The notes under the pieces are model-generated. The model saw nothing but the letters and a program-made list of their open reading frames with translations. It had not been told where the DNA came from and ran no database searches. 64,000 nucleotides of DNA, taken from assembly GCF_055900595.2 (NCBI RefSeq), contig NZ_CM148325.1; one strand, written 5' to 3'. Below are positions 1 through 59,093 of this stretch, in pieces (the first letter of the stretch is position 1; each line of letters opens with the position of its first letter). Both the position numbers and the translations under genes were made by a program.

Positions 1-573
1 GGTTTTACCGGCATAACCGAAGACATGTTAGCCCACTGGCAGTCATCGCTGGTTCTGCTGGCGCGTGACGCAAAAGGCTTTGCTTCGGTCTGTTATGACG
101 ACGAAGGGGCAATCAAAATCCTGATGCAACGGCTGTATGACCAGGGGCATCGTAATATCAGTTATCTCGGCGTACCGCACAGTGACGTGACGACCGGTAA
201 GCGACGTCACGAAGCCTACCTGGCGTTCTGCAAAGCGCATAAACTGCATCCCGTTGCCGCTCTGCCAGGCCTTGCGATGAAGCAAGGCTATGAGAACGTA
301 GCAAAAGTGATTACGCCTGAAACTACCGCGTTACTGTGCGCAACCGACACGCTGGCACTTGGCGCAAGTAAATACCTGCAAGAGCAACGCATCGACACCT
401 TGCAACTGGCGAGCGTCGGTAATACGCCGTTAATGAAATTCCTCCATCCGGAGATCGTCACCGTTGACCCAGGTTACGCCGAAGCTGGACGCCAGGCGGC
501 CAGCCAGTTAATTGCGCAGGTAACCGGGCGCAGCGAACCGCAACAAATCATCATCCCTGCCACCCTATCCTGA
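1..573 (+). CDS. treR: Trehalose operon repressor TreR, C-terminal part (5' end outside window)
   Basis: ORF 25..573 is in frame with position 1; LacI-family C-terminal sugar-binding domain; sits immediately upstream of treB-treC as in E. coli. Confidence 0.85.
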   Translation, partial: GFTGITEDMLAHWQSSLVLLARDAKGFASVCYDDEGAIKILMQRLYDQGHRNISYLGVPHSDVTTGKRRHEAYLAFCKAHKLHPVAALPGLAMKQGYENVAKVITPETTALLCATDTLALGASKYLQEQRIDTLQLASVGNTPLMKFLHPEIVTVDPGYAEAGRQAASQLIAQVTGRSEPQQIIIPATLS

Positions 574-612
574 TCGTTTCCTGAACGATAAATTGTGATC
601 TTCGCTGCGTTT

Positions 613-626
613 CGGGAACGTTCCCG
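613..626. promoter_or_regulatory. Perfect 14-bp palindrome CGGGAACGTTCCCG in the treB promoter region; candidate TreR operator
   Basis: Palindrome read directly in the sequence, about 65 bp upstream of the treB start; a TGTGA CRP half-site lies just upstream near 588-592. Confidence 0.5.
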
Positions 627-691
627 TTTTTAAATTTTTCCGCGCACTATATTCTGCAGCCAACCAAAAATGTCATCTGCCATGGGGCTTT

Positions 692-2113
692 ATGATGAGC
701 AAAATAAACCAAACGGATCTCGATCGGTTGATTGAACTGGTCGGCGGGCGCGGCAACATTGCGACGGTGAGCCACTGTATTACTCGCCTGCGCTTTGTCC
801 TCAACCAACCGGCCAATGCCAGACCGAAAGAGATTGAGCAACTCCCCATGGTGAAAGGCTGTTTCACCAATGCCGGGCAATTTCAGGTGGTAATTGGCAC
901 CAACGTGGGTGATTACTATCAAGCGCTGATAGCGACGACCGGACAGGCGCAGGTTGATAAAGAGCAGGTGAAAAAAGCTGCCCGGCAGAATATGAAATGG
1001 CATGAGCAGTTGATCTCTCATTTCGCGGAGATCTTCTTCCCGCTGCTGCCCGCGTTGATTAGTGGTGGTTTGATCCTCGGTTTTCGCAATGTGATCGGTG
1101 ATTTGCCCATGAGCAACGGTCAAACGCTGGCGCAAATGTACCCTTCCCTGCAAACGATCTACGATTTTCTATGGTTGATCGGTGAAGCGATCTTCTTCTA
1201 CCTGCCGGTCGGAATTTGCTGGTCAGCGGTGAAAAAAATGGGCGGCACGCCGATCCTCGGTATCGTGCTTGGCGTGACGCTGGTTTCCCCACAGTTGATG
1301 AACGCTTATCTGCTCGGGCAGCAGCTACCGGAAGTATGGAACTTTGGCATGTTCAGCATCGCCAAAGTGGGCTATCAGGCACAGGTTATTCCGGCACTGT
1401 TAGCCGGGCTGGCGCTGGGCGTGATAGAAACTCGCCTTAAGCGTATCGTGCCGGATTATCTCTATCTGGTGGTGGTGCCGGTCTGTTCGCTGATCCTCGC
1501 GGTGTTCCTCGCCCATGCGCTGATTGGTCCGTTTGGTCGCATGATTGGCGATGGCGTTGCCTTTGCGGTGCGTCACCTGATGACCGGCAGCTTTGCCCCC
1601 ATTGGTGCGGCATTGTTTGGCTTCCTTTACGCACCGCTGGTGATCACCGGCGTACACCAGACCACGCTTGCTATAGATTTGCAGATGATTCAAAGCATGG
1701 GTGGCACGCCAGTGTGGCCGCTTATTGCGCTGTCGAATATCGCTCAGGGCTCCGCCGTGATAGGCATTATCATTTCCAGCCGCAAGAGCAATGAACGCGA
1801 GATCTCCGTACCTGCCGCTATCTCCGCCTGGCTTGGGGTCACTGAGCCTGCAATGTACGGCATCAACCTGAAATATCGCTTCCCGATGCTGTGCGCGATG
1901 ATTGGTTCTGGTCTGGCAGGATTGCTATGTGGTCTGAACGGCGTTATGGCGAATGGCATCGGCGTAGGCGGCCTGCCGGGAATTCTCTCTATTCAACCGA
2001 GCTACTGGCAAGTGTTTGTGCTGGCAATGGCTATCGCCATCATCATCCCGATTGTACTCACTTCGTTTATCTACCAGCGGAAATACCGCCTGGGTACGCT
2101 GGACATTGTTTAA
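692..2113 (+). CDS. treB: PTS trehalose-specific EIIBC component
   Basis: 473-aa ORF beginning MMSKINQTDLDRL, PTS EIIB cysteine motif followed by a multi-pass EIIC domain; located between treR and treC. Confidence 0.9.
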   Translation: MMSKINQTDLDRLIELVGGRGNIATVSHCITRLRFVLNQPANARPKEIEQLPMVKGCFTNAGQFQVVIGTNVGDYYQALIATTGQAQVDKEQVKKAARQNMKWHEQLISHFAEIFFPLLPALISGGLILGFRNVIGDLPMSNGQTLAQMYPSLQTIYDFLWLIGEAIFFYLPVGICWSAVKKMGGTPILGIVLGVTLVSPQLMNAYLLGQQLPEVWNFGMFSIAKVGYQAQVIPALLAGLALGVIETRLKRIVPDYLYLVVVPVCSLILAVFLAHALIGPFGRMIGDGVAFAVRHLMTGSFAPIGAALFGFLYAPLVITGVHQTTLAIDLQMIQSMGGTPVWPLIALSNIAQGSAVIGIIISSRKSNEREISVPAAISAWLGVTEPAMYGINLKYRFPMLCAMIGSGLAGLLCGLNGVMANGIGVGGLPGILSIQPSYWQVFVLAMAIAIIIPIVLTSFIYQRKYRLGTLDIV

Positions 2114-2162
2114 TTTTCTTCGGGGCGCAATTGCGCCCCCTCGCATTTGCAGGAATAACGTA

Positions 2163-3818
2163 ATGACGAATCTTCCCCACTGGTGGCAAAACGGCGTTAT
2201 CTACCAGATTTATCCCAAGAGTTTTCAGGACACCACGGGCAGCGGTACCGGCGATTTACGTGGCGTTATCCAACGCCTGGACTATCTGCAAAAACTGGGC
2301 GTCGATGCTATCTGGTTGACCCCCTTTTATGTCTCTCCCCAGGTCGATAACGGATACGACGTAGCGAACTATACGGCGATAGATCCCACTTACGGTACGC
2401 TGGACGATTTTGACGAACTGGTGACGCAGGCGAAATCGCGCGGCATTCGTATCATTCTCGATATGGTGTTTAATCATACTTCTACCCAACATACCTGGTT
2501 TCGCGAGGCGCTGAGCAAAGAAAGCCCTTACCGTCAGTTTTATATCTGGCGCGATGGTGAACCAGAAACGCCACCGAATAACTGGCGTTCAAAATTTGGC
2601 GGTAGTGCGTGGCGCTGGCATGCGGAAAGCGAACAGTACTATTTGCATCTCTTTGCACCAGAACAGGCGGATCTCAACTGGGAGAATCCGACGGTACGCG
2701 CAGAACTGAAAAAAGTCTGTGAGTTCTGGGCCGATCGCGGGGTCGATGGGTTACGCCTGGATGTAGTGAATTTGATCTCTAAAGATCCGCGTTTTCCTAA
2801 TGACCTGGATGGCGACGGGCGTCGCTTCTACACCGACGGGCCACGAGCACACGAGTTTTTGCACGAGATGAACCGCGATGTGTTTACGCCTCGCGGTTTA
2901 ATGACCGTGGGTGAAATGTCCTCCACCAGCCTTGAGCATTGCCAGCGATACGCGGCACTAACAGGCAGTGAATTGTCGATGACCTTTAATTTTCATCACC
3001 TGAAGGTCGATTATCCCGGTGGTGAAAAATGGACGCTGGCTAAACCTGACTTTGTGGCGTTGAAAGCATTGTTCCGCCACTGGCAACAAGGAATGCACAA
3101 CGTGGCATGGAATGCCTTGTTCTGGTGTAACCACGATCAGCCGCGCATTGTTTCTCGTTTTGGTGATGAAGGGGACTACCGCGAACCTGCGGCAAAAATG
3201 CTGGCGATGGTGCTGCATGGCATGCAGGGAACGCCATATATCTATCAGGGCGAAGAGATTGGCATGACTAACCCACATTTCACGCGCATTACTGACTATC
3301 GCGACGTGGAGAGCCTCAATATGTTTGCCGAACTGCGCAACGATGGGCGTGACGCCGAGGAGTTATTGGCAATCCTCGCCAGTAAATCCCGTGACAATAG
3401 TCGCACGCCAATGCAATGGAGCAACGGCGATAATGCCGGGTTTACAACGGGTGAACCGTGGATTGGCCTGGGCGATAACTATCAAGAAATCAACGTAGAA
3501 GCCGCGCTGGCCGATGAGTCCTCGGTGTTTTACACCTACCAAAAGTTAATCGCACTGCGTAAGCAAGAAGCCGTCCTGACATGGGGCAATTACCAGGATC
3601 TGCTGCCAGACAGCCCTGTATTGTGGTGCTATCGCCGTGAATGGAAGGGGCAAACCTTGCTGGTCATTGCCAACCTTAGCCGTGAGATCCAACCCTGGCA
3701 GCCAGGGCAAATGCGCGGAAACTGGCAGCTTGTGATGCATAACTACGAAGAAGTCTCAGCACAACCCTGTGCCATGACTTTACGGCCTTTTGAGGCCGTC
3801 TGGTGGTTACAGAAGTAA
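2163..3818 (+). CDS. treC: Trehalose-6-phosphate hydrolase (GH13 alpha-glucosidase family)
   Basis: ORF-track start 2016 trimmed to the ATG at 2163 (MTNLPHWWQNGVIYQIYP), giving the recalled 551 aa; GH13 motifs present. Confidence 0.9.
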   Translation: MTNLPHWWQNGVIYQIYPKSFQDTTGSGTGDLRGVIQRLDYLQKLGVDAIWLTPFYVSPQVDNGYDVANYTAIDPTYGTLDDFDELVTQAKSRGIRIILDMVFNHTSTQHTWFREALSKESPYRQFYIWRDGEPETPPNNWRSKFGGSAWRWHAESEQYYLHLFAPEQADLNWENPTVRAELKKVCEFWADRGVDGLRLDVVNLISKDPRFPNDLDGDGRRFYTDGPRAHEFLHEMNRDVFTPRGLMTVGEMSSTSLEHCQRYAALTGSELSMTFNFHHLKVDYPGGEKWTLAKPDFVALKALFRHWQQGMHNVAWNALFWCNHDQPRIVSRFGDEGDYREPAAKMLAMVLHGMQGTPYIYQGEEIGMTNPHFTRITDYRDVESLNMFAELRNDGRDAEELLAILASKSRDNSRTPMQWSNGDNAGFTTGEPWIGLGDNYQEINVEAALADESSVFYTYQKLIALRKQEAVLTWGNYQDLLPDSPVLWCYRREWKGQTLLVIANLSREIQPWQPGQMRGNWQLVMHNYEEVSAQPCAMTLRPFEAVWWLQK

Positions 3819-3828
3819 GTATCCGCTA

Positions 3829-3860
3829 AGCCCCGGTAATACTGGTCATTCCGGGGTTTT
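3829..3860 (+). terminator. Rho-independent terminator downstream of treC
   Basis: GC stem AGCCCCGG ... CCGGGGTTTT followed by a T-run. Confidence 0.5.
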
Positions 3861-3879
3861 GCCTTTCAGTATGTTGTTT

Positions 3880-4070
3880 TTGTTGATTTTATAATCAAAA
3901 AATTCATTAAAAAATTTACATAACGCTGTAGCGCCCGTCATCCGTACGCTCTGCTTTTTACTTTGAGCTACATCAAAAAAAGTTCAAACATCCTTGATGC
4001 AAAGCACTATATATAGACTTTAAAATGCGTCCCGACCCAATATGTTGTATTAATCGACTATAATTGCTAC
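3880..4070 (+). promoter_or_regulatory. nrdDG promoter region with AT-rich palindromes; candidate NrdR boxes
   Basis: AT-rich tract upstream of nrdD containing palindromic CACTATATATAG (about 4005-4016), a CATCAA/TTGATG inverted pair (3971-3999) and TTGAT-N6-ATCAA (3883-3898); motif assignment is tentative. Confidence 0.35.
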
Positions 4071-4211
4071 TACAGCTCCCCACGAAAAAGGTGCGGCGTT
4101 GTGGATAAGCGGATGGCGATTGCGGAAAGCACCGGAAAACGAAACGAAAAAACCGGAAAACGCCTTTCCCAATTTCTGTGGATAACCTGTTCTTAAAAAT
4201 ATGGAGCGATC

Positions 4212-6350
4212 ATGACACCGCATGTGATGAAACGAGACGGCTGCAAAGTGCCGTTTAAATCAGAGCGCATCAAAGAAGCGATTCTGCGTGCAGCTAAAGC
4301 AGCGGAAGTCGATGATGCAGATTATTGCGCCACTGTTGCCGCGGTTGTCAGCGAGCAGATGCAGGGCCGCAGCCAGGTGGATATCAACGAGATCCAGACC
4401 GCCGTTGAAAACCAGCTGATGTCGGGTCCATACAAACAACTGGCTCGTGCTTACATCGAGTACCGTCACGATCGCGACATTGAACGTGAAAAACGCGGTC
4501 GCCTGAATCAGGAGATCCGTGGTCTGGTCGAGCAGACCAACGCCTCGTTGCTCAACGAAAACGCCAACAAAGACAGCAAGGTGATTCCAACCCAGCGCGA
4601 CCTGCTGGCCGGGATTGTGGCTAAACACTATGCACGTCAGCACCTGCTGCCGCGTGACGTGGTGCAGGCGCATGAGCGTGGCGATATTCACTATCACGAT
4701 CTCGATTACTCGCCGTTCTTCCCGATGTTCAACTGCATGTTGATCGACCTGAAAGGTATGCTGACCCAGGGCTTTAAGATGGGTAACGCCGAGATTGAAC
4801 CACCGAAGTCGATCTCTACGGCAACCGCGGTAACAGCGCAGATTATTGCTCAGGTCGCCAGTCATATTTATGGCGGCACCACCATTAACCGTATCGATGA
4901 AGTGCTGGCACCGTTTGTCACCGCCAGCTACAACAAACACCGCAAGACCGCAGAAGAGTGGAACATCCCGGACGCCGAAGGTTACGCTAACTCTCGTACC
5001 ATCAAAGAGTGCTACGATGCCTTCCAGTCGCTGGAGTACGAAGTAAACACCCTGCACACCGCCAACGGTCAAACACCGTTTGTGACCTTTGGTTTTGGTC
5101 TGGGCACCAGCTGGGAGTCTCGCCTGATTCAGGAGTCTATCCTGCGTAACCGTATCGCTGGCCTGGGTAAAAACCGCAAAACTGCGGTGTTCCCGAAACT
5201 GGTGTTTGCGATTCGCGATGGCCTGAACCATAAAAAAGGCGATCCGAACTACGACATCAAACAGCTGGCGCTGGAGTGCGCAAGCAAGCGCATGTATCCG
5301 GATATCCTGAACTACGATCAGGTAGTGAAAGTCACCGGTTCGTTTAAAACCCCGATGGGCTGCCGTAGCTTCCTCGGCGTGTGGGAAAATGAAAACGGCG
5401 AACAGATCCACGATGGTCGTAACAACCTCGGCGTGATCAGCCTGAACCTACCGCGCATTGCGCTGGAAGCGAAAGGCGATGAGGCCACCTTCTGGAAGCT
5501 GCTGGATGAACGTCTGGTGCTGGCACGTAAGGCGCTGATGACCCGTATCGCTCGTCTCGAAGGCGTTAAAGCGCGCGTGGCCCCGATCCTCTATATGGAA
5601 GGTGCTTGTGGCGTTCGTCTGAATGCTGACGACGACGTTTCTGAAATCTTCAAAAACGGTCGTGCGTCTATTTCGCTGGGTTACATCGGCATCCACGAAA
5701 CCATTAACGCGCTGTTTGGCGGCGAGCATGTGTATGATAACGAGCAGCTGCGCGCGAAAGGTATCGCCATTGTTGAACGTCTGCGTCAGGCGGTGGATCA
5801 GTGGAAAGAAGAAACGGGTTACGGTTTTAGCCTTTACAGCACGCCAAGTGAAAACCTGTGCGACCGCTTCTGCCGTCTCGATACCGCGGAGTTTGGCGTG
5901 GTGCCGGGCGTGACTGATAAAGGTTACTACACCAACAGTTTCCACCTCGATGTGGAGAAGAAGGTGAACCCGTACGACAAGATCGACTTTGAAGCGCCTT
6001 ACCCGCCGCTGGCGAACGGTGGCTTCATTTGCTACGGCGAATATCCAAACATTCAGCACAACCTGAAGGCGCTGGAAGATGTCTGGGATTACAGCTATCA
6101 GCATGTACCGTATTACGGCACCAATACGCCGATTGATGAGTGTTACGAGTGTGGTTTTACCGGTGAGTTTGAGTGCACCAGTAAAGGCTTCACCTGCCCG
6201 AAATGTGGTAACCATGACGCCTCCCGTGTGTCGGTGACTCGCCGCGTGTGCGGATATTTAGGTAGCCCGGATGCGCGTCCGTTTAACGCTGGTAAGCAGG
6301 AAGAAGTTAAGCGCCGCGTTAAACATTTGGGAAATGGGCAGATCGGTTAA
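4212..6350 (+). CDS. nrdD: Anaerobic ribonucleoside-triphosphate reductase (class III, glycyl radical)
   Basis: 712-aa ORF with an N-terminal ATP-cone, C-terminal cysteine zinc ribbon and a glycyl-radical motif (RVCGYLG). Confidence 0.9.
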   Translation: MTPHVMKRDGCKVPFKSERIKEAILRAAKAAEVDDADYCATVAAVVSEQMQGRSQVDINEIQTAVENQLMSGPYKQLARAYIEYRHDRDIEREKRGRLNQEIRGLVEQTNASLLNENANKDSKVIPTQRDLLAGIVAKHYARQHLLPRDVVQAHERGDIHYHDLDYSPFFPMFNCMLIDLKGMLTQGFKMGNAEIEPPKSISTATAVTAQIIAQVASHIYGGTTINRIDEVLAPFVTASYNKHRKTAEEWNIPDAEGYANSRTIKECYDAFQSLEYEVNTLHTANGQTPFVTFGFGLGTSWESRLIQESILRNRIAGLGKNRKTAVFPKLVFAIRDGLNHKKGDPNYDIKQLALECASKRMYPDILNYDQVVKVTGSFKTPMGCRSFLGVWENENGEQIHDGRNNLGVISLNLPRIALEAKGDEATFWKLLDERLVLARKALMTRIARLEGVKARVAPILYMEGACGVRLNADDDVSEIFKNGRASISLGYIGIHETINALFGGEHVYDNEQLRAKGIAIVERLRQAVDQWKEETGYGFSLYSTPSENLCDRFCRLDTAEFGVVPGVTDKGYYTNSFHLDVEKKVNPYDKIDFEAPYPPLANGGFICYGEYPNIQHNLKALEDVWDYSYQHVPYYGTNTPIDECYECGFTGEFECTSKGFTCPKCGNHDASRVSVTRRVCGYLGSPDARPFNAGKQEEVKRRVKHLGNGQIG

Positions 6351-49003: not shown

Positions 49004-49417
<414 letters not shown>

Positions 49418-49726
49418 TTATTCAGCCTCCTGTCTGGGTCAGCCGAATCCCGGGGAGGCAAGGAACGTGTTAAAGGTCGGCTGAAAAATGACGCGTTATA
49501 GTACTGACATACCCCGCTAAACTCAAGGCCAGCCGACAAATAAATCTCATCTTTCACCAAATCGTACTAACACGCTGATTTGAAGTTCATCACACTTCAT
49601 CATGGTGTTTTTTTGAACAACTGCATCAGAAATGGTCACCATCCACTTCTTTATCATTGATTAAAATTAAATCAGAAGATCACCACAAGAGGAGAGCACA
49701 CAAAGTCAGCCGTCGAGGAGGTATCT

Positions 49727-50002
49727 ATGTTCAGCCGTGTTTTAGCCCTTCTGGCTGTGCTTTTGCTAAGTGCAAATACATGGGCAGCCATTGAAATTAA
49801 TAACCACCAGGCCAGAAATATGGACGATGTGCAAAGCTTAGGCGTGATTTATATCAATCATAATTTCGCCACTGAAAGCGAAGCGCGTCAGGCATTAAAT
49901 GAAGAGACAAATGCGCAGGGCGCAACGTACTACCACGTGATTCTGATGCGGGAACCGGGGAGTAACGGCAATATGCACGCCAGCGCGGATATTTATCGCT
50001 AG
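49727..50002 (+). CDS. yjfY: DUF1471 (YdgH/BhsA/McbA-like) small periplasmic protein
   Basis: 91-aa ORF with a signal peptide; matches K-12 YjfY as I recall it. Confidence 0.8.
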   Translation: MFSRVLALLAVLLLSANTWAAIEINNHQARNMDDVQSLGVIYINHNFATESEARQALNEETNAQGATYYHVILMREPGSNGNMHASADIYR

Positions 50003-50040
50003 CACCAGGTATAACCAACGAAACATTGCCATAGTTTGCT

Positions 50041-50068
50041 TTGCCCCCTTCTCAGGGGGCTTTTTTAT
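50041..50068. terminator. Bidirectional hairpin terminator between yjfY and the YagU-like gene
   Basis: GCCCCCTTCTCAGGGGGC stem followed by TTTTTT. Confidence 0.5.
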
Positions 50069-50075
50069 GCGCCAT

Positions 50076-50627
50076 TCAACGAATAACGACTTCCGGATCC
50101 GGCTCATGAGTAATGCGATTACGTAAGTCGCGGCGCATAATTTCTATTATCCAGAACCAGAAAATGTGCCCAAGGATTTCAGATGCATATTCGTCAAAAG
50201 GCAATTGAGTGAGCGGCGGCGTTAAATTCAGCGCCGGGCAAAATATACCGTGGACTGCCACTGTCACAATAAGCCCTGCTAATATCCCCTGCCATAATTT
50301 CACTTTCGGGAAAATTTCCGCGACCACACAATACCCTATCGCAAAAACCAGTGAGAAGATGATATGCGTCACCATCACCGGGTTGATAATATGTTCCGAG
50401 AATGTATACACAGTTTGGGTTGGGTCGATCCCTAAATAATCCCGTAGAAAGATATACGGCGGATTAAACTCATCGCGACCACCGGAAAATGTGCGCGGTG
50501 GCAAGGGAACTTCCGCTCCCCATTTAACAAATGCTGAAATAATTCCTGAAAGTACACCCACAAGTAACGCAACGCCATAACGGCGACGCTGCGGATCCGT
50601 TCTGACAAACAATCCGTTGATAGCCAT
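50076..50627 (-). CDS. YagU/DUF1440-family inner membrane protein
   Basis: 183-aa ORF with RRRYG...[15 protein letters not shown]...[12 protein letters not shown]...RRDLRNRIT, resembling YagU as I recall it; I do not recall a gene here in K-12. Confidence 0.65.
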
Positions 50628-50723
50628 AAAAACACCTGTTGTTTATACGATTTTTTAACTGAAACGGCCCCGGAATCAGACCAATTACATCCCGCAGGAG
50701 GTAATAATTCCGGGGCGCACTGC

Positions 50724-51410
50724 TTACTTCTGCCCGTAATAGGCGTTAGGACCGTGCTTACGCATGAAGTGTTTATTCATGAGATAGCTGTCGATGTGAT
50801 TCAGTTGTGGGTTAATGCCGCGGGCAATCCACGCCATTTTCGCCACTTCTTCCATCACCACCGCGTTATGCACCGCATCGTGAGCATCTTTCCCCCAGGC
50901 GAATGGCCCGTGCTGATACACCACAATTCCCGGCGTATGCAGCGGCTCGGCGTCACCCAGCGTTTCGATAATCACTTTGCCAGTGTTTAGCTCGTATTCC
51001 CCCTGCACTTCTTCTTCGCTTAACCCGCGCGTACAGGGGATATCGCCAAAGAAGTAGTCAGCATGCGTGGTGCCTAATGCCGGGATCGCCAGCCCCGCTT
51101 GCGCCCATGCGGTGGCATGCGTGGAATGGGTATGGACAATGCCGCCAAGCGACGGATAACGACGGTAGAGTTCAAGATGCGTCGCAGTGTCGGAAGACGG
51201 ACGATACTCCCCTTCCACCACCTTGCCGCTCATATCAACCACCACCATATCGTTCGCTTTCATGCTTTCGTAGGCGACGCCGCTGGGCTTGATCACCACC
51301 AGCCCGCGTTCGCGGTCAATGGCGCTGACGTTGCCCCAGGTAAAGGTCACCAGCCCGTAATGCGGCAGATCCATATTGGCTTCAAACACCTGCTGTTTTA
51401 GCTTTTGCAT
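50724..51410 (-). CDS. ulaF: L-ribulose-5-phosphate 4-epimerase
   Basis: 228-aa class II aldolase/epimerase ORF; last gene of ulaABCDEF. Confidence 0.9.
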
Positions 51411-58158: not shown

Positions 58159-58339
58159 CTGTCTCTCCTTTTTGTCTGGTATGACATGAAGAAATCCTTA
58201 GCACAAGTTTCTGCTGGCGGTATTAGTTCATAATGTTGAGATGTGGGTTACGCTTTCATCACGTTTTCATTCGAAAATCGCGTACCAGGTAACAATTCGG
58301 GAACATTCCCCCAAAGTTAAATTAATAAGGCACTACACT

Positions 58340-58669
58340 ATGGTTAGCAGGAAACGTAATAGCGTTATTTACCGGTTTGCCAGTTTATTATTGGTGTTGA
58401 TGTTAAGTGCCTGTAGCGCACTGCAAGGTACGCCACAGCCAGCACCGCCAGTAACGGACCATCCGCAAGAGATTCGCCGCGACCAGACGCAAGGGTTACA
58501 GCGAATAGGTAGCGTAAGCACGATGGTTCGGGGTTCTCCGGATGACGCATTAGCAGAAATCAGAGCGAAAGCTGTCGCTGCAAAAGCTGATTATTACGTT
58601 GTCGTCATGGTGGACGAAACCATTGTGACAGGACAGTGGTATTCACAAGCTATTTTATACCGTAAATAA
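58340..58669 (+). CDS. bsmA: Biofilm/stress-associated lipoprotein (DUF1471)
   Basis: ORF-track start 58241 trimmed to the ATG at 58340 (MVSRKRNSVIYRF...LSAC lipobox), giving 109 aa. Confidence 0.75.
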   Translation: MVSRKRNSVIYRFASLLLVLMLSACSALQGTPQPAPPVTDHPQEIRRDQTQGLQRIGSVSTMVRGSPDDALAEIRAKAVAAKADYYVVVMVDETIVTGQWYSQAILYRK

Positions 58670-58817
58670 ATCAGACAACTTATACAGCCAGCTTTACATT
58701 GCTTTGCGTCCCTATGCGTTTACCTGTGCACAATAAATTACCAGCTGGAAGCTCGGGCGTTTATTACCGCGATGGAATGCCCTGCAACATGTGGGGAAAC
58801 GAAAAATGGAGCTGACG

Positions 58818-59093
58818 ATGAAACAATTACTTGCCTCACCCTCGCTGCAATTAGTGACTTATCCTGCGAGCACCACGGCACAGTCTGCAGAATTCGCCAG
58901 TGCTGACTGCGTGACGGGCCTGAATGAAATAGGTCAGATCTCGGTTAGCAATATTTCAGGGGATCCGCAGGACGTGGAACGTATCGTGGCGTTAAAGGCC
59001 GATGAACAAGGTGCATCATGGTACCGCATTATTACCATGTACGAAGACCAGCAGCCTGATAACTGGCGCGTACAGGCGATCCTGTATGCGTGA
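58818..59093 (+). CDS. yjfN: DUF1471 family small secreted protein
   Basis: Start trimmed to MKQLLASPSLQL, giving 91 aa; paralogous in type to yjfY and bsmA. Confidence 0.75.
   Translation: MKQLLASPSLQLVTYPASTTAQSAEFASADCVTGLNEIGQISVSNISGDPQDVERIVALKADEQGASWYRIITMYEDQQPDNWRVQAILYA

Follow-up and report, generated by a model that had tools for sequence, protein, structure and literature searches.

A strain-variable, short-loop YagU/DUF1440 membrane-protein gene between ulaF and yjfY in Escherichia coli

The DNA considered here is a 64,000-nucleotide stretch of contig NZ_CM148325.1 (assembly GCF_055900595.2), hereafter the window, which encodes, between the genes yjfY and ulaF, a small inner-membrane protein of the YagU (DUF1440) family. 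Taken together, the evidence makes it probable that this is a functional and already catalogued accessory gene of a short-loop type, which was ancestrally located at the 3' end of the ula operon and has been deleted from K-12-type genomes, and for which expression by read-through and a role in stress tolerance may be proposed. Public annotation already records the gene, the family to which it is assigned and its variable presence among strains, none of which is therefore new.

The interval 50003-50723 runs exactly from the stop codon of yjfY (50002) to that of ulaF (50724). Within it the sole long open reading frame, which begins with ATG, lies at 50076..50627 on the minus strand, and it is the 183-aa frame that the first-pass annotation of this DNA had placed between yjfY and ulaF. 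In this arrangement ulaF is immediately upstream of the gene on the same strand, across a gap of 96 nt, and the stop codon of the gene falls 10 nt past the terminator of yjfY, which is on the opposite strand. The features of the locus are as follows.

49727..50002, plus strand: yjfY (DUF1471 family), convergent with the DUF1440 gene (ORF, RefSeq, matches to NCBIfam DUF1471-type models)
50043..50066, plus strand: intrinsic terminator of yjfY, GCCCCCT-TCTC-AGGGGGC and then T6 (terminator scan)
50067..50656, no strand: segment of ~590 bp that is missing in K-12-type genomes (manual junction comparison)
50076..50627, minus strand: coding sequence of the short-form YagU-family (DUF1440) inner-membrane protein, 183 aa (ORF, Pfam, BLASTP, RefSeq)
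50633..50637, minus strand: Shine-Dalgarno sequence AGGTG, five bases 5' of the ATG (read from the sequence)
50667..50716, minus strand: hairpin in the 3' untranslated region of ulaF, with a 10-bp stem and a 30-nt loop (inverted repeat and fold)
50724..51410, minus strand: ulaF, the last gene of ulaABCDEF (ORF and RefSeq annotation)

The AGGTG Shine-Dalgarno sequence is kept both in gene-bearing E. coli and in E. whittamii.

The short form of the YagU family

The membership of the protein in the DUF1440/YagU family, which had been put forward from sequence motifs, is borne out by formal comparison. All four of the motifs quoted at that stage are found in the translation of the reading frame, and the relationship to DUF1440 proteins is unambiguous in both profile and pairwise alignment, and is further supported by an alignment of 58 family sequences. 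In hmmscan the Pfam model DUF1440 (PF07274) matches the protein with E 4.6e-45 and 153.4 bits, residues 29-163 being aligned to model positions 1-135 of 135, i.e. to the full model. BLASTP against the YagU of K-12 (204 aa, the reference sequence being taken from a K-12 record) gives 57% identity at E 1e-81. A scan of NCBIfam with this protein and with YagU found no family model, the matches to CbtA, TIGR04086 and MurJ being at chance level (E ~0.02).

The gene is a paralog of K-12 yagU (b0287) and not its ortholog. The yagU locus adjoins paoA and ykgJ, in the order paoA-yagU-ykgJ, whereas the gene described here lies between ulaF and yjfY. Moreover, a genome which matches the window at 100% contains two matching places for the query, and yagU-like sequence occurs in 4958 of 5426 genomes.

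In terms of topology, the protein is predicted to have four transmembrane helices with both of its termini in the cytoplasm. A Kyte-Doolittle profile contains three strong hydrophobic segments and one amphipathic segment, and lysine and arginine are concentrated at both termini and in the 107-113 loop, a pattern which fits an N-in/C-in arrangement. An AlphaFold2 model (mean pLDDT 81.8, pTM 0.78) has long helices at residues 17-39, 83-105, 115-132 and 144-173, together with a short helix at 56-65. Among the 58 family members there are 45 invariant alignment columns, and the protein has all 45 of the residues in question. Those within helices are H88, Y99, C100, E104, H126, E150, H154 and E162, and further invariant residues are K35-W36-G37, P43-P44-R45, N55-P56-P57 and W157-F158-W159. 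A search of PDB sequences with a profile built from the 58 sequences returned no match at E up to 1, and Foldseek against AFDB50 returned DUF1440 proteins only and no functional lead; in other words, the PDB and fold searches yielded neither a solved structure nor an informative fold neighbour.

The protein is 21 aa shorter than YagU. The BLASTP alignment accounts for this with one gap of 20 residues right after PLPPR and one gap of a single residue, in agreement with the earlier remark that an internal segment seemed to be lacking. From the hydropathy and charge distribution (four helices, both ends cytoplasmic), the missing insert can be placed in the first periplasmic loop. In the 58-sequence alignment the family falls into two forms, a long form, in which YagU is included, and a short form of 183-187 aa. 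Long-form members carry a variable insert of 15-31 aa with two conserved cysteines (C...C), and all short-form members are without it. Short-form homologs of 183-187 aa are present in Citrobacter, Serratia, Hafnia, Klebsiella oxytoca, Raoultella, Providencia, Rahnella, Budvicia and some Vibrio, and orthologs of the same length range and with the same short loop, 75-92% identical to the protein, occur in Salmonella and Pseudocitrobacter as well as in all of these except Vibrio.

It might be supposed that a protein with an internal gap, 21 residues short of YagU and encoded by a gene that is missing from most strains, is the product of a decaying, internally deleted yagU copy, that is, a pseudogene or non-functional remnant. 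This explanation is effectively refuted by the selection and subfamily data and we consider it extremely improbable. The reading frame is intact in each copy examined, the Pfam match spans the full model, every family-invariant residue is kept, the homologs of many genera share the short loop, and dN/dS is 0.019 against the E. whittamii ortholog and 0.025 against that of Salmonella. A short loop which is widespread in the Enterobacterales, coupled with a dN/dS of ~0.02, means that the gene is not a decayed copy. Judged from these sequence comparisons, the short loop is a subfamily trait, maintained across the Enterobacterales under strong purifying selection, and not damage; absence of the segment is what defines the subfamily and is not a sign of truncation.

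Two arrangements of the ulaF-yjfY spacer

The first-pass annotation stated that K-12 has no gene at this position and took its presence to vary among strains, and both statements hold. In a K-12-lineage genome the yjfY-ulaF spacer is 129 bp in length with nothing annotated inside it. Of 5426 complete E. coli genomes, 603 (11%), one of which is O104:H4 C227-11, carry the 590-bp gene segment and have the gene annotated in every case, while the K-12-type, gene-less junction is found in 4820 (89%), such that the two arrangements cover 5423 of the 5426 genomes. The allele of the window is the rarer of the E. coli alleles, with 9 genomes at least 99% identical to it and 594 at 95-99%. The interval has a 100% match in the complete E. 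coli genome NZ_CP098223.1, where the reading frame is annotated as 'YagU family protein' (WP_032304369.1), and the exact protein is found on 404 contigs under the name 'MULTISPECIES: DUF1440 domain-containing protein [Escherichia]'.

Two hairpins lie near the ends of the interval and had been regarded as flanks of an insert. The first, reported at 50041-50068, corresponds well to a stem at 50043-50060 (7 pairs, 6 of them G-C) with a T6 run directly after it, at 50061-50066; the terminator scan identified it as an intrinsic terminator, and it is 98-100% identical in all E. coli examined, whether the gene is present or absent. The second inverted repeat is likewise real, with 10-nt arms that are 100% complementary around a 30-nt loop, but its arms are at 50667-50676 and 50707-50716, ~10 nt to the right of the approximate span of 50657-50704 first given for it. 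It folds with an MFE of -29.1 kcal/mol (z -1.9). Across six haplotypes or species, compensatory double changes occur at 5 of its 10 stem pairs, and 96.7% of cells are paired in the true register, compared with 28-53% in slid controls. On the strength of this covariation the ulaF 3' hairpin is under structural selection. An Rfam scan of 49350-50850 left it unmatched, returning only the RpsF leader and a sub-threshold STnc280 match on the yjfY terminator. Since both hairpins also occur in gene-less genomes, neither is the border of an insert; they are, respectively, the terminator of yjfY and a conserved hairpin at the 3' end of ulaF. The latter is followed by CCGUUUCAGUU in gene-bearing E. coli and by CCGUUUUUC in gene-less Escherichia, the gene-bearing version of the hairpin being of the CCCCGG type and the gene-less one of the CTGCGG type. 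In Pseudocitrobacter, which is gene-bearing, the hairpin is followed by U8 and forms a good terminator.

The junctions of gene-bearing and gene-less genomes were compared directly by hand. In the 129-bp gene-less spacer the yjfY terminator is retained, as is a hairpin homologous to that of ulaF, and what is missing is exactly the stretch between two T6 runs, 50061-50066 and 50651-50656, by which the segment is bounded. On our reading of the junctions, slippage between these T6 runs predicts a spacer of the length observed in K-12. The 590-bp segment contains no mobile-element genes (integrase or transposase), and its borders have no terminal repeats, target-site duplication or long repeats, the T6 runs being all that is present; the search for border repeats gave short, chance-level matches only.

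Beyond E. coli, the order ulaD-E-F, gene, yjfY, rpsF is found in contigs of Salmonella enterica, in Pseudocitrobacter and in E. whittamii, and ulaABCDEF is followed by the gene in two Hafnia and two Budvicia species. In all of these, as in E. coli, the gene is co-directional with ulaF and directly 3' of it. This linkage to ula is not universal, since outside the six ula-linked species and Salmonella the short-form gene stands in unrelated contexts. Adjacency to ulaF was not seen for the short-form genes of Citrobacter, Klebsiella, Raoultella, Serratia, Providencia and Rahnella, and that of Citrobacter follows a DctA-like transporter and a cystathionine beta-lyase. The species scan of contigs relied on exact 8-residue peptide patterns, such that a species missing from its output may still have the gene.

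Absences are found closer to E. coli as well. E. albertii and E. fergusonii, which were checked directly, are without the gene and have the K-12-type hairpin, an observation which speaks against ancestral presence. The gene is also absent from at least one divergent Salmonella lineage, and probably from Salmonella LT2, where yjfY is STM4389 and yjfN is STM4378, because the consecutive locus tags from STM4378 to STM4389 leave none for an extra gene (PMC4092069). The identification of STM4389 as a DUF1440 membrane protein of LT2 was considered and rejected, STM4389 being yjfY (PMC4092069). In view of E. albertii, E. fergusonii, the divergent Salmonella lineage and probably LT2, the gene is patchy within both Escherichia and Salmonella.

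The arrangement had originally been described as an insertion, and a recent horizontal insertion, by which a minority of E. coli gained the gene in a ulaF-yjfY spacer ancestrally without it, would account for several of the observations. The gene is present in little more than a tenth of the complete E. coli genomes and is missing from the outgroups E. albertii and E. fergusonii, which have the gene-less type of hairpin; dS among the E. coli copies is high, at 0.11-0.15; the G+C content of the gene is 46.7% as against 51.1% for the window; and the hairpin is 23-25% diverged while its flanks are nearly identical, which fits the recombinational import of a diverged segment. We nevertheless regard such an insertion as unlikely. 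Salmonella enterica, Pseudocitrobacter and E. whittamii have an ortholog in exactly this place, and Hafnia and Budvicia have one beside ulaF. At 80% DNA identity and with dS saturated, the gene and its Salmonella counterpart diverged no more recently than the flanking genes, for which identity is 82-86%. Neither an integrase nor an IS element, long repeat or target-site duplication accompanies the segment, and the low G+C content is shared by yjfY, at 47.5%.

With regard to polarity, therefore, the word 'insertion' is probably wrong. The shared site and the adjacency to ulaF across genera make an ancestral gene which was lost in the K-12-type haplotype the simplest reading, and ancestral presence followed by loss is also the more economical in view of the synteny, a divergence no smaller than that of the genes on either side and the lack of mobile-element features. 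Most likely, the gene has long stood at the 3' terminus of the L-ascorbate (ula) operon of the Enterobacterales, and the K-12-type arrangement would most likely have arisen from a deletion of ~590 bp between two short homopolymer runs.

Within E. coli, two sharply distinct haplotypes segregate, and homologous recombination appears to exchange them. Between the haplotypes the hairpin region (66 bp) is 75-77% identical, in comparison with 98-100% for the adjoining yjfY-terminator spacer. The 3' end of ulaF is 99.0% identical between gene-bearing and gene-less genomes in the case of A17 vs O26, and 92-96% identical in other pairs, and one allele of the UlaF protein, WP_001170812.1, is found both with and without the gene. 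This pattern of identities and the shared UlaF allele point to two old alleles and short recombination tracts, and not to repeated fresh deletions. It is possible that E. coli regained the gene-bearing allele through homologous recombination with a relative in Escherichia that carries the gene.

Expression and putative function

Expression of the gene probably depends, partly or wholly, on read-through of the ula transcript. We infer this from three features, namely the lack of a consensus promoter in the gap that separates the gene from ulaF, an eroded U-tract in gene-bearing E. coli, and the short, hairpin-free gap in Hafnia. A scan for the sigma-70 consensus, which is crude and detects consensus sites only, found no site in the 96-nt gap and two sites in all, both intragenic. 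In gene-bearing E. coli this gap contains the conserved hairpin without the U-tract that follows it in gene-less genomes, and in Hafnia the distance from the ulaF stop codon to the ATG is ~26 nt, with AAGGAGG or AAGGAAGG and no hairpin.

A different account would give the gene a stress-responsive promoter of its own and make it a separate transcription unit, in which case adjacency to ulaF is synteny only and implies no tie to ascorbate. This is a somewhat doubtful but serious possibility, not least because in Escherichia and Salmonella ulaF and the gene are set apart by a conserved, covarying hairpin, and because the Pseudocitrobacter hairpin carries a U8 tail despite the presence of the gene, which suggests an independent promoter in that organism. 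Moreover, in most genera the short-form gene is not beside ula, and the established ula pathway, which comprises PTS uptake, a lactonase, a decarboxylase and two epimerases, needs no extra membrane protein. The lack of a sigma-70-like promoter in the 96-nt gap (on the crude, consensus-only scan), the eroded U-tract after the hairpin in gene-bearing E. coli and the ~26-nt Hafnia gap all count against it. A search for CpxR boxes (GTAAA-N5-GTAAA, with at most two mismatches) gave one upstream match, at 50644-50658 and with two mismatches, which is not evidence since such matches occur at about chance frequency, 71 being observed in the window against 48 +/- 9 expected by chance.

As regards function, YagU itself is linked to acid tolerance, as the first-pass annotation had noted. 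Acid induces the yagU gene 16-fold, external pH being the signal to which it responds (PMC2270276), and a yagU::kan strain survives pH 2 at 19% as opposed to 70% for its parent, a roughly threefold reduction (PMC1626474). In addition, yagU is a direct target of CpxR (PMC7657598) and is bound by OmpR (PMC5217608). By analogy, the protein described here may contribute to tolerance of envelope or acid stress by means of its membrane-embedded histidine and glutamate residues, for example through the handling of protons or other ions, although the assignment of proton or ion handling to the conserved intramembrane His and Glu is speculation. The regulation of yagU by acid, CpxR and OmpR is not transferable to the gene, since its upstream region is unrelated to that of yagU, and the regulatory analogy is accordingly weak. 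No acid-induction or pH 2 data for the short paralog were found in literature searches that were not aimed directly at it.

A stress role had also been seen as fitting a cluster of DUF1471 proteins nearby. Of these, yjfY is adjacent to the gene, but BsmA (ORF 58241-58669) and a YjfN-like ORF (58791-59093), both of which match NCBIfam DUF1471-type models, are ~8 kb away, with the ula genes in between, and 'cluster' is therefore loose wording. Any functional link between the DUF1440 gene and the DUF1471 genes is positional only.

A bolder conjecture joins these threads, in that the short-form gene may be an ancestral seventh ula gene, cotranscribed with ulaF and useful in ascorbate fermentation, with the presence of the gene and the version of the hairpin together making up an ancient selected polymorphism. 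We think this improbable, and offer it as a long shot. If it were true, the gene could counter the acid or envelope stress that is caused by ascorbate fermentation, and the polymorphism would be kept in Escherichia and Salmonella by selection, not by drift.

Significance and comparison with known systems

The finding is real but ordinary, and it matters little beyond housekeeping. Gene-bearing E. coli, O104:H4 C227-11 among them, have two YagU-family proteins, and for this reason the phenotypes of yagU mutants may be masked by the paralog in such strains. For mutagenesis, the invariant His and Glu residues within the membrane are the natural choice. What interest remains is in a two-allele locus with a co-varying RNA hairpin, and in the recurrent linkage of DUF1440 to ula. 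In this regard, the locus is a clean presence/absence polymorphism of two haplotypes with an abrupt boundary, and a hairpin that varies together with the state of the gene. As a small and tractable example it lends itself to the study of how old indel alleles are maintained by recombination, and it is also a natural experiment on the ulaF hairpin as a terminator or otherwise.

Three known systems offer themselves for comparison. With respect to the ulaABCDEF operon (sgaTBAHUE), the gene is co-directional and directly downstream in Escherichia, Salmonella, Pseudocitrobacter, Hafnia and Budvicia. In K-12, however, the operon is defined as ending at ulaF, which leaves the gene outside it, and in Escherichia and Salmonella the conserved hairpin separates the two. 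We know of no role for a DUF1440 protein in the ula pathway. With YagU the protein shares its Pfam family, its helix layout, the N-terminal RRRYG, the NPPYIFLRD motif and a further loop motif, and the C-terminal tail; it differs in that the 20-residue periplasmic insert of YagU, with its two conserved cysteines, is missing, and in that the gene has no YagU-type upstream region. The closest likeness is to the short-form YagU-family proteins of the Enterobacterales (for example WP_032304369.1 and WP_000996728.1), from which there is no real difference, the protein of the window being WP_032304369.1 itself.

The hairpin downstream of ulaF

The 3' end of ulaF is followed by a hairpin that is shared by Escherichia, Salmonella and Pseudocitrobacter and has no entry in Rfam.

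Window 50667-50716, minus-strand RNA sense: hairpin downstream of ulaF, with homologs in the comparison loci L001, L058, L006, L067, L069 and L070

The stem carries compensatory changes, its arms being variously CCCCGG, CTGCGG, CTCCGG and CCCCGTCG, and the loop is conserved in part (GGGAUGUAAUUGGUC). The two E. coli versions of the hairpin, gene-bearing and gene-less, share only 75-77% identity. Yet identity in the adjoining yjfY-terminator spacer is 98-100%, and for the 3' end of ulaF strains A17 and O26 agree at 99.0%.

Other elements near yjfY, rpsF and bsmA

Three further matches lie in the surrounding region.

Window 49397-49481 (-): RpsF leader (Rfam RF02893) upstream of rpsF, a full-length model match scoring 110 bits
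Window 49999-50072 (+): sub-threshold match to the Salmonella sRNA STnc280 (Rfam)
Window 58693-58707 (-): CpxR-box-like sequence GCAAAGCAATGTAAA, 1 mismatch

The RpsF leader is an already known element. The STnc280-like match, with 21.6 bits (gathering score 80) and E 0.62, overlaps the stop codon and terminator of yjfY, and is probably mere terminator similarity. The candidate CpxR box sits between the bsmA ORF and a yjfN-like ORF; the CpxR iModulon is reported to include yjfN (PMC7657598). As a separate observation, yjfY is truncated by ISEcp1 in an ST131 genome (E. coli O25:H4 strain 18044; L063, 1-849).

The DUF1440 gene in other genera

The following loci concern the short-form DUF1440 gene outside E. 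coli.

L065:2501-3058 and L058:4001-4558: Salmonella enterica ortholog, 185 aa
L015:3974-4001 and L054:3973-4001: ulaF-DUF1440 gap, Hafnia alvei and H. paralvei
L007-L011 and L053, about 150-5900: short-form gene context, Citrobacter spp.

The called start of the Salmonella ortholog is GTG, and whereas the E. coli copy has a Shine-Dalgarno sequence, none is obvious upstream of this start (...TATAGAATCATACTATTGTG). Presence varies within Salmonella, the divergent lineage L070 being without the gene, as is, probably, LT2, judging from its locus-tag numbering (PMC4092069). In Hafnia, because only ~26 nt separate the ulaF stop codon from the DUF1440 start codon, and this gap holds AAGGAAGG or AAGGAGG and no hairpin (L015, L054), the gene looks, from its arrangement, like a true seventh ula cistron.

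The long-form paralog, yagU, is truncated by IS600 in one genome (strain 12689; L004, 1257-2617).

The Citrobacter context differs from the ula context: there co-directional genes for a DctA/SstT-like transporter and for a cystathionine beta-lyase (NCBIfam PRK08114, 753 bits) precede the short-form gene, which is third in line, with a divergent LysR-type regulator upstream and convergent mdtM downstream.
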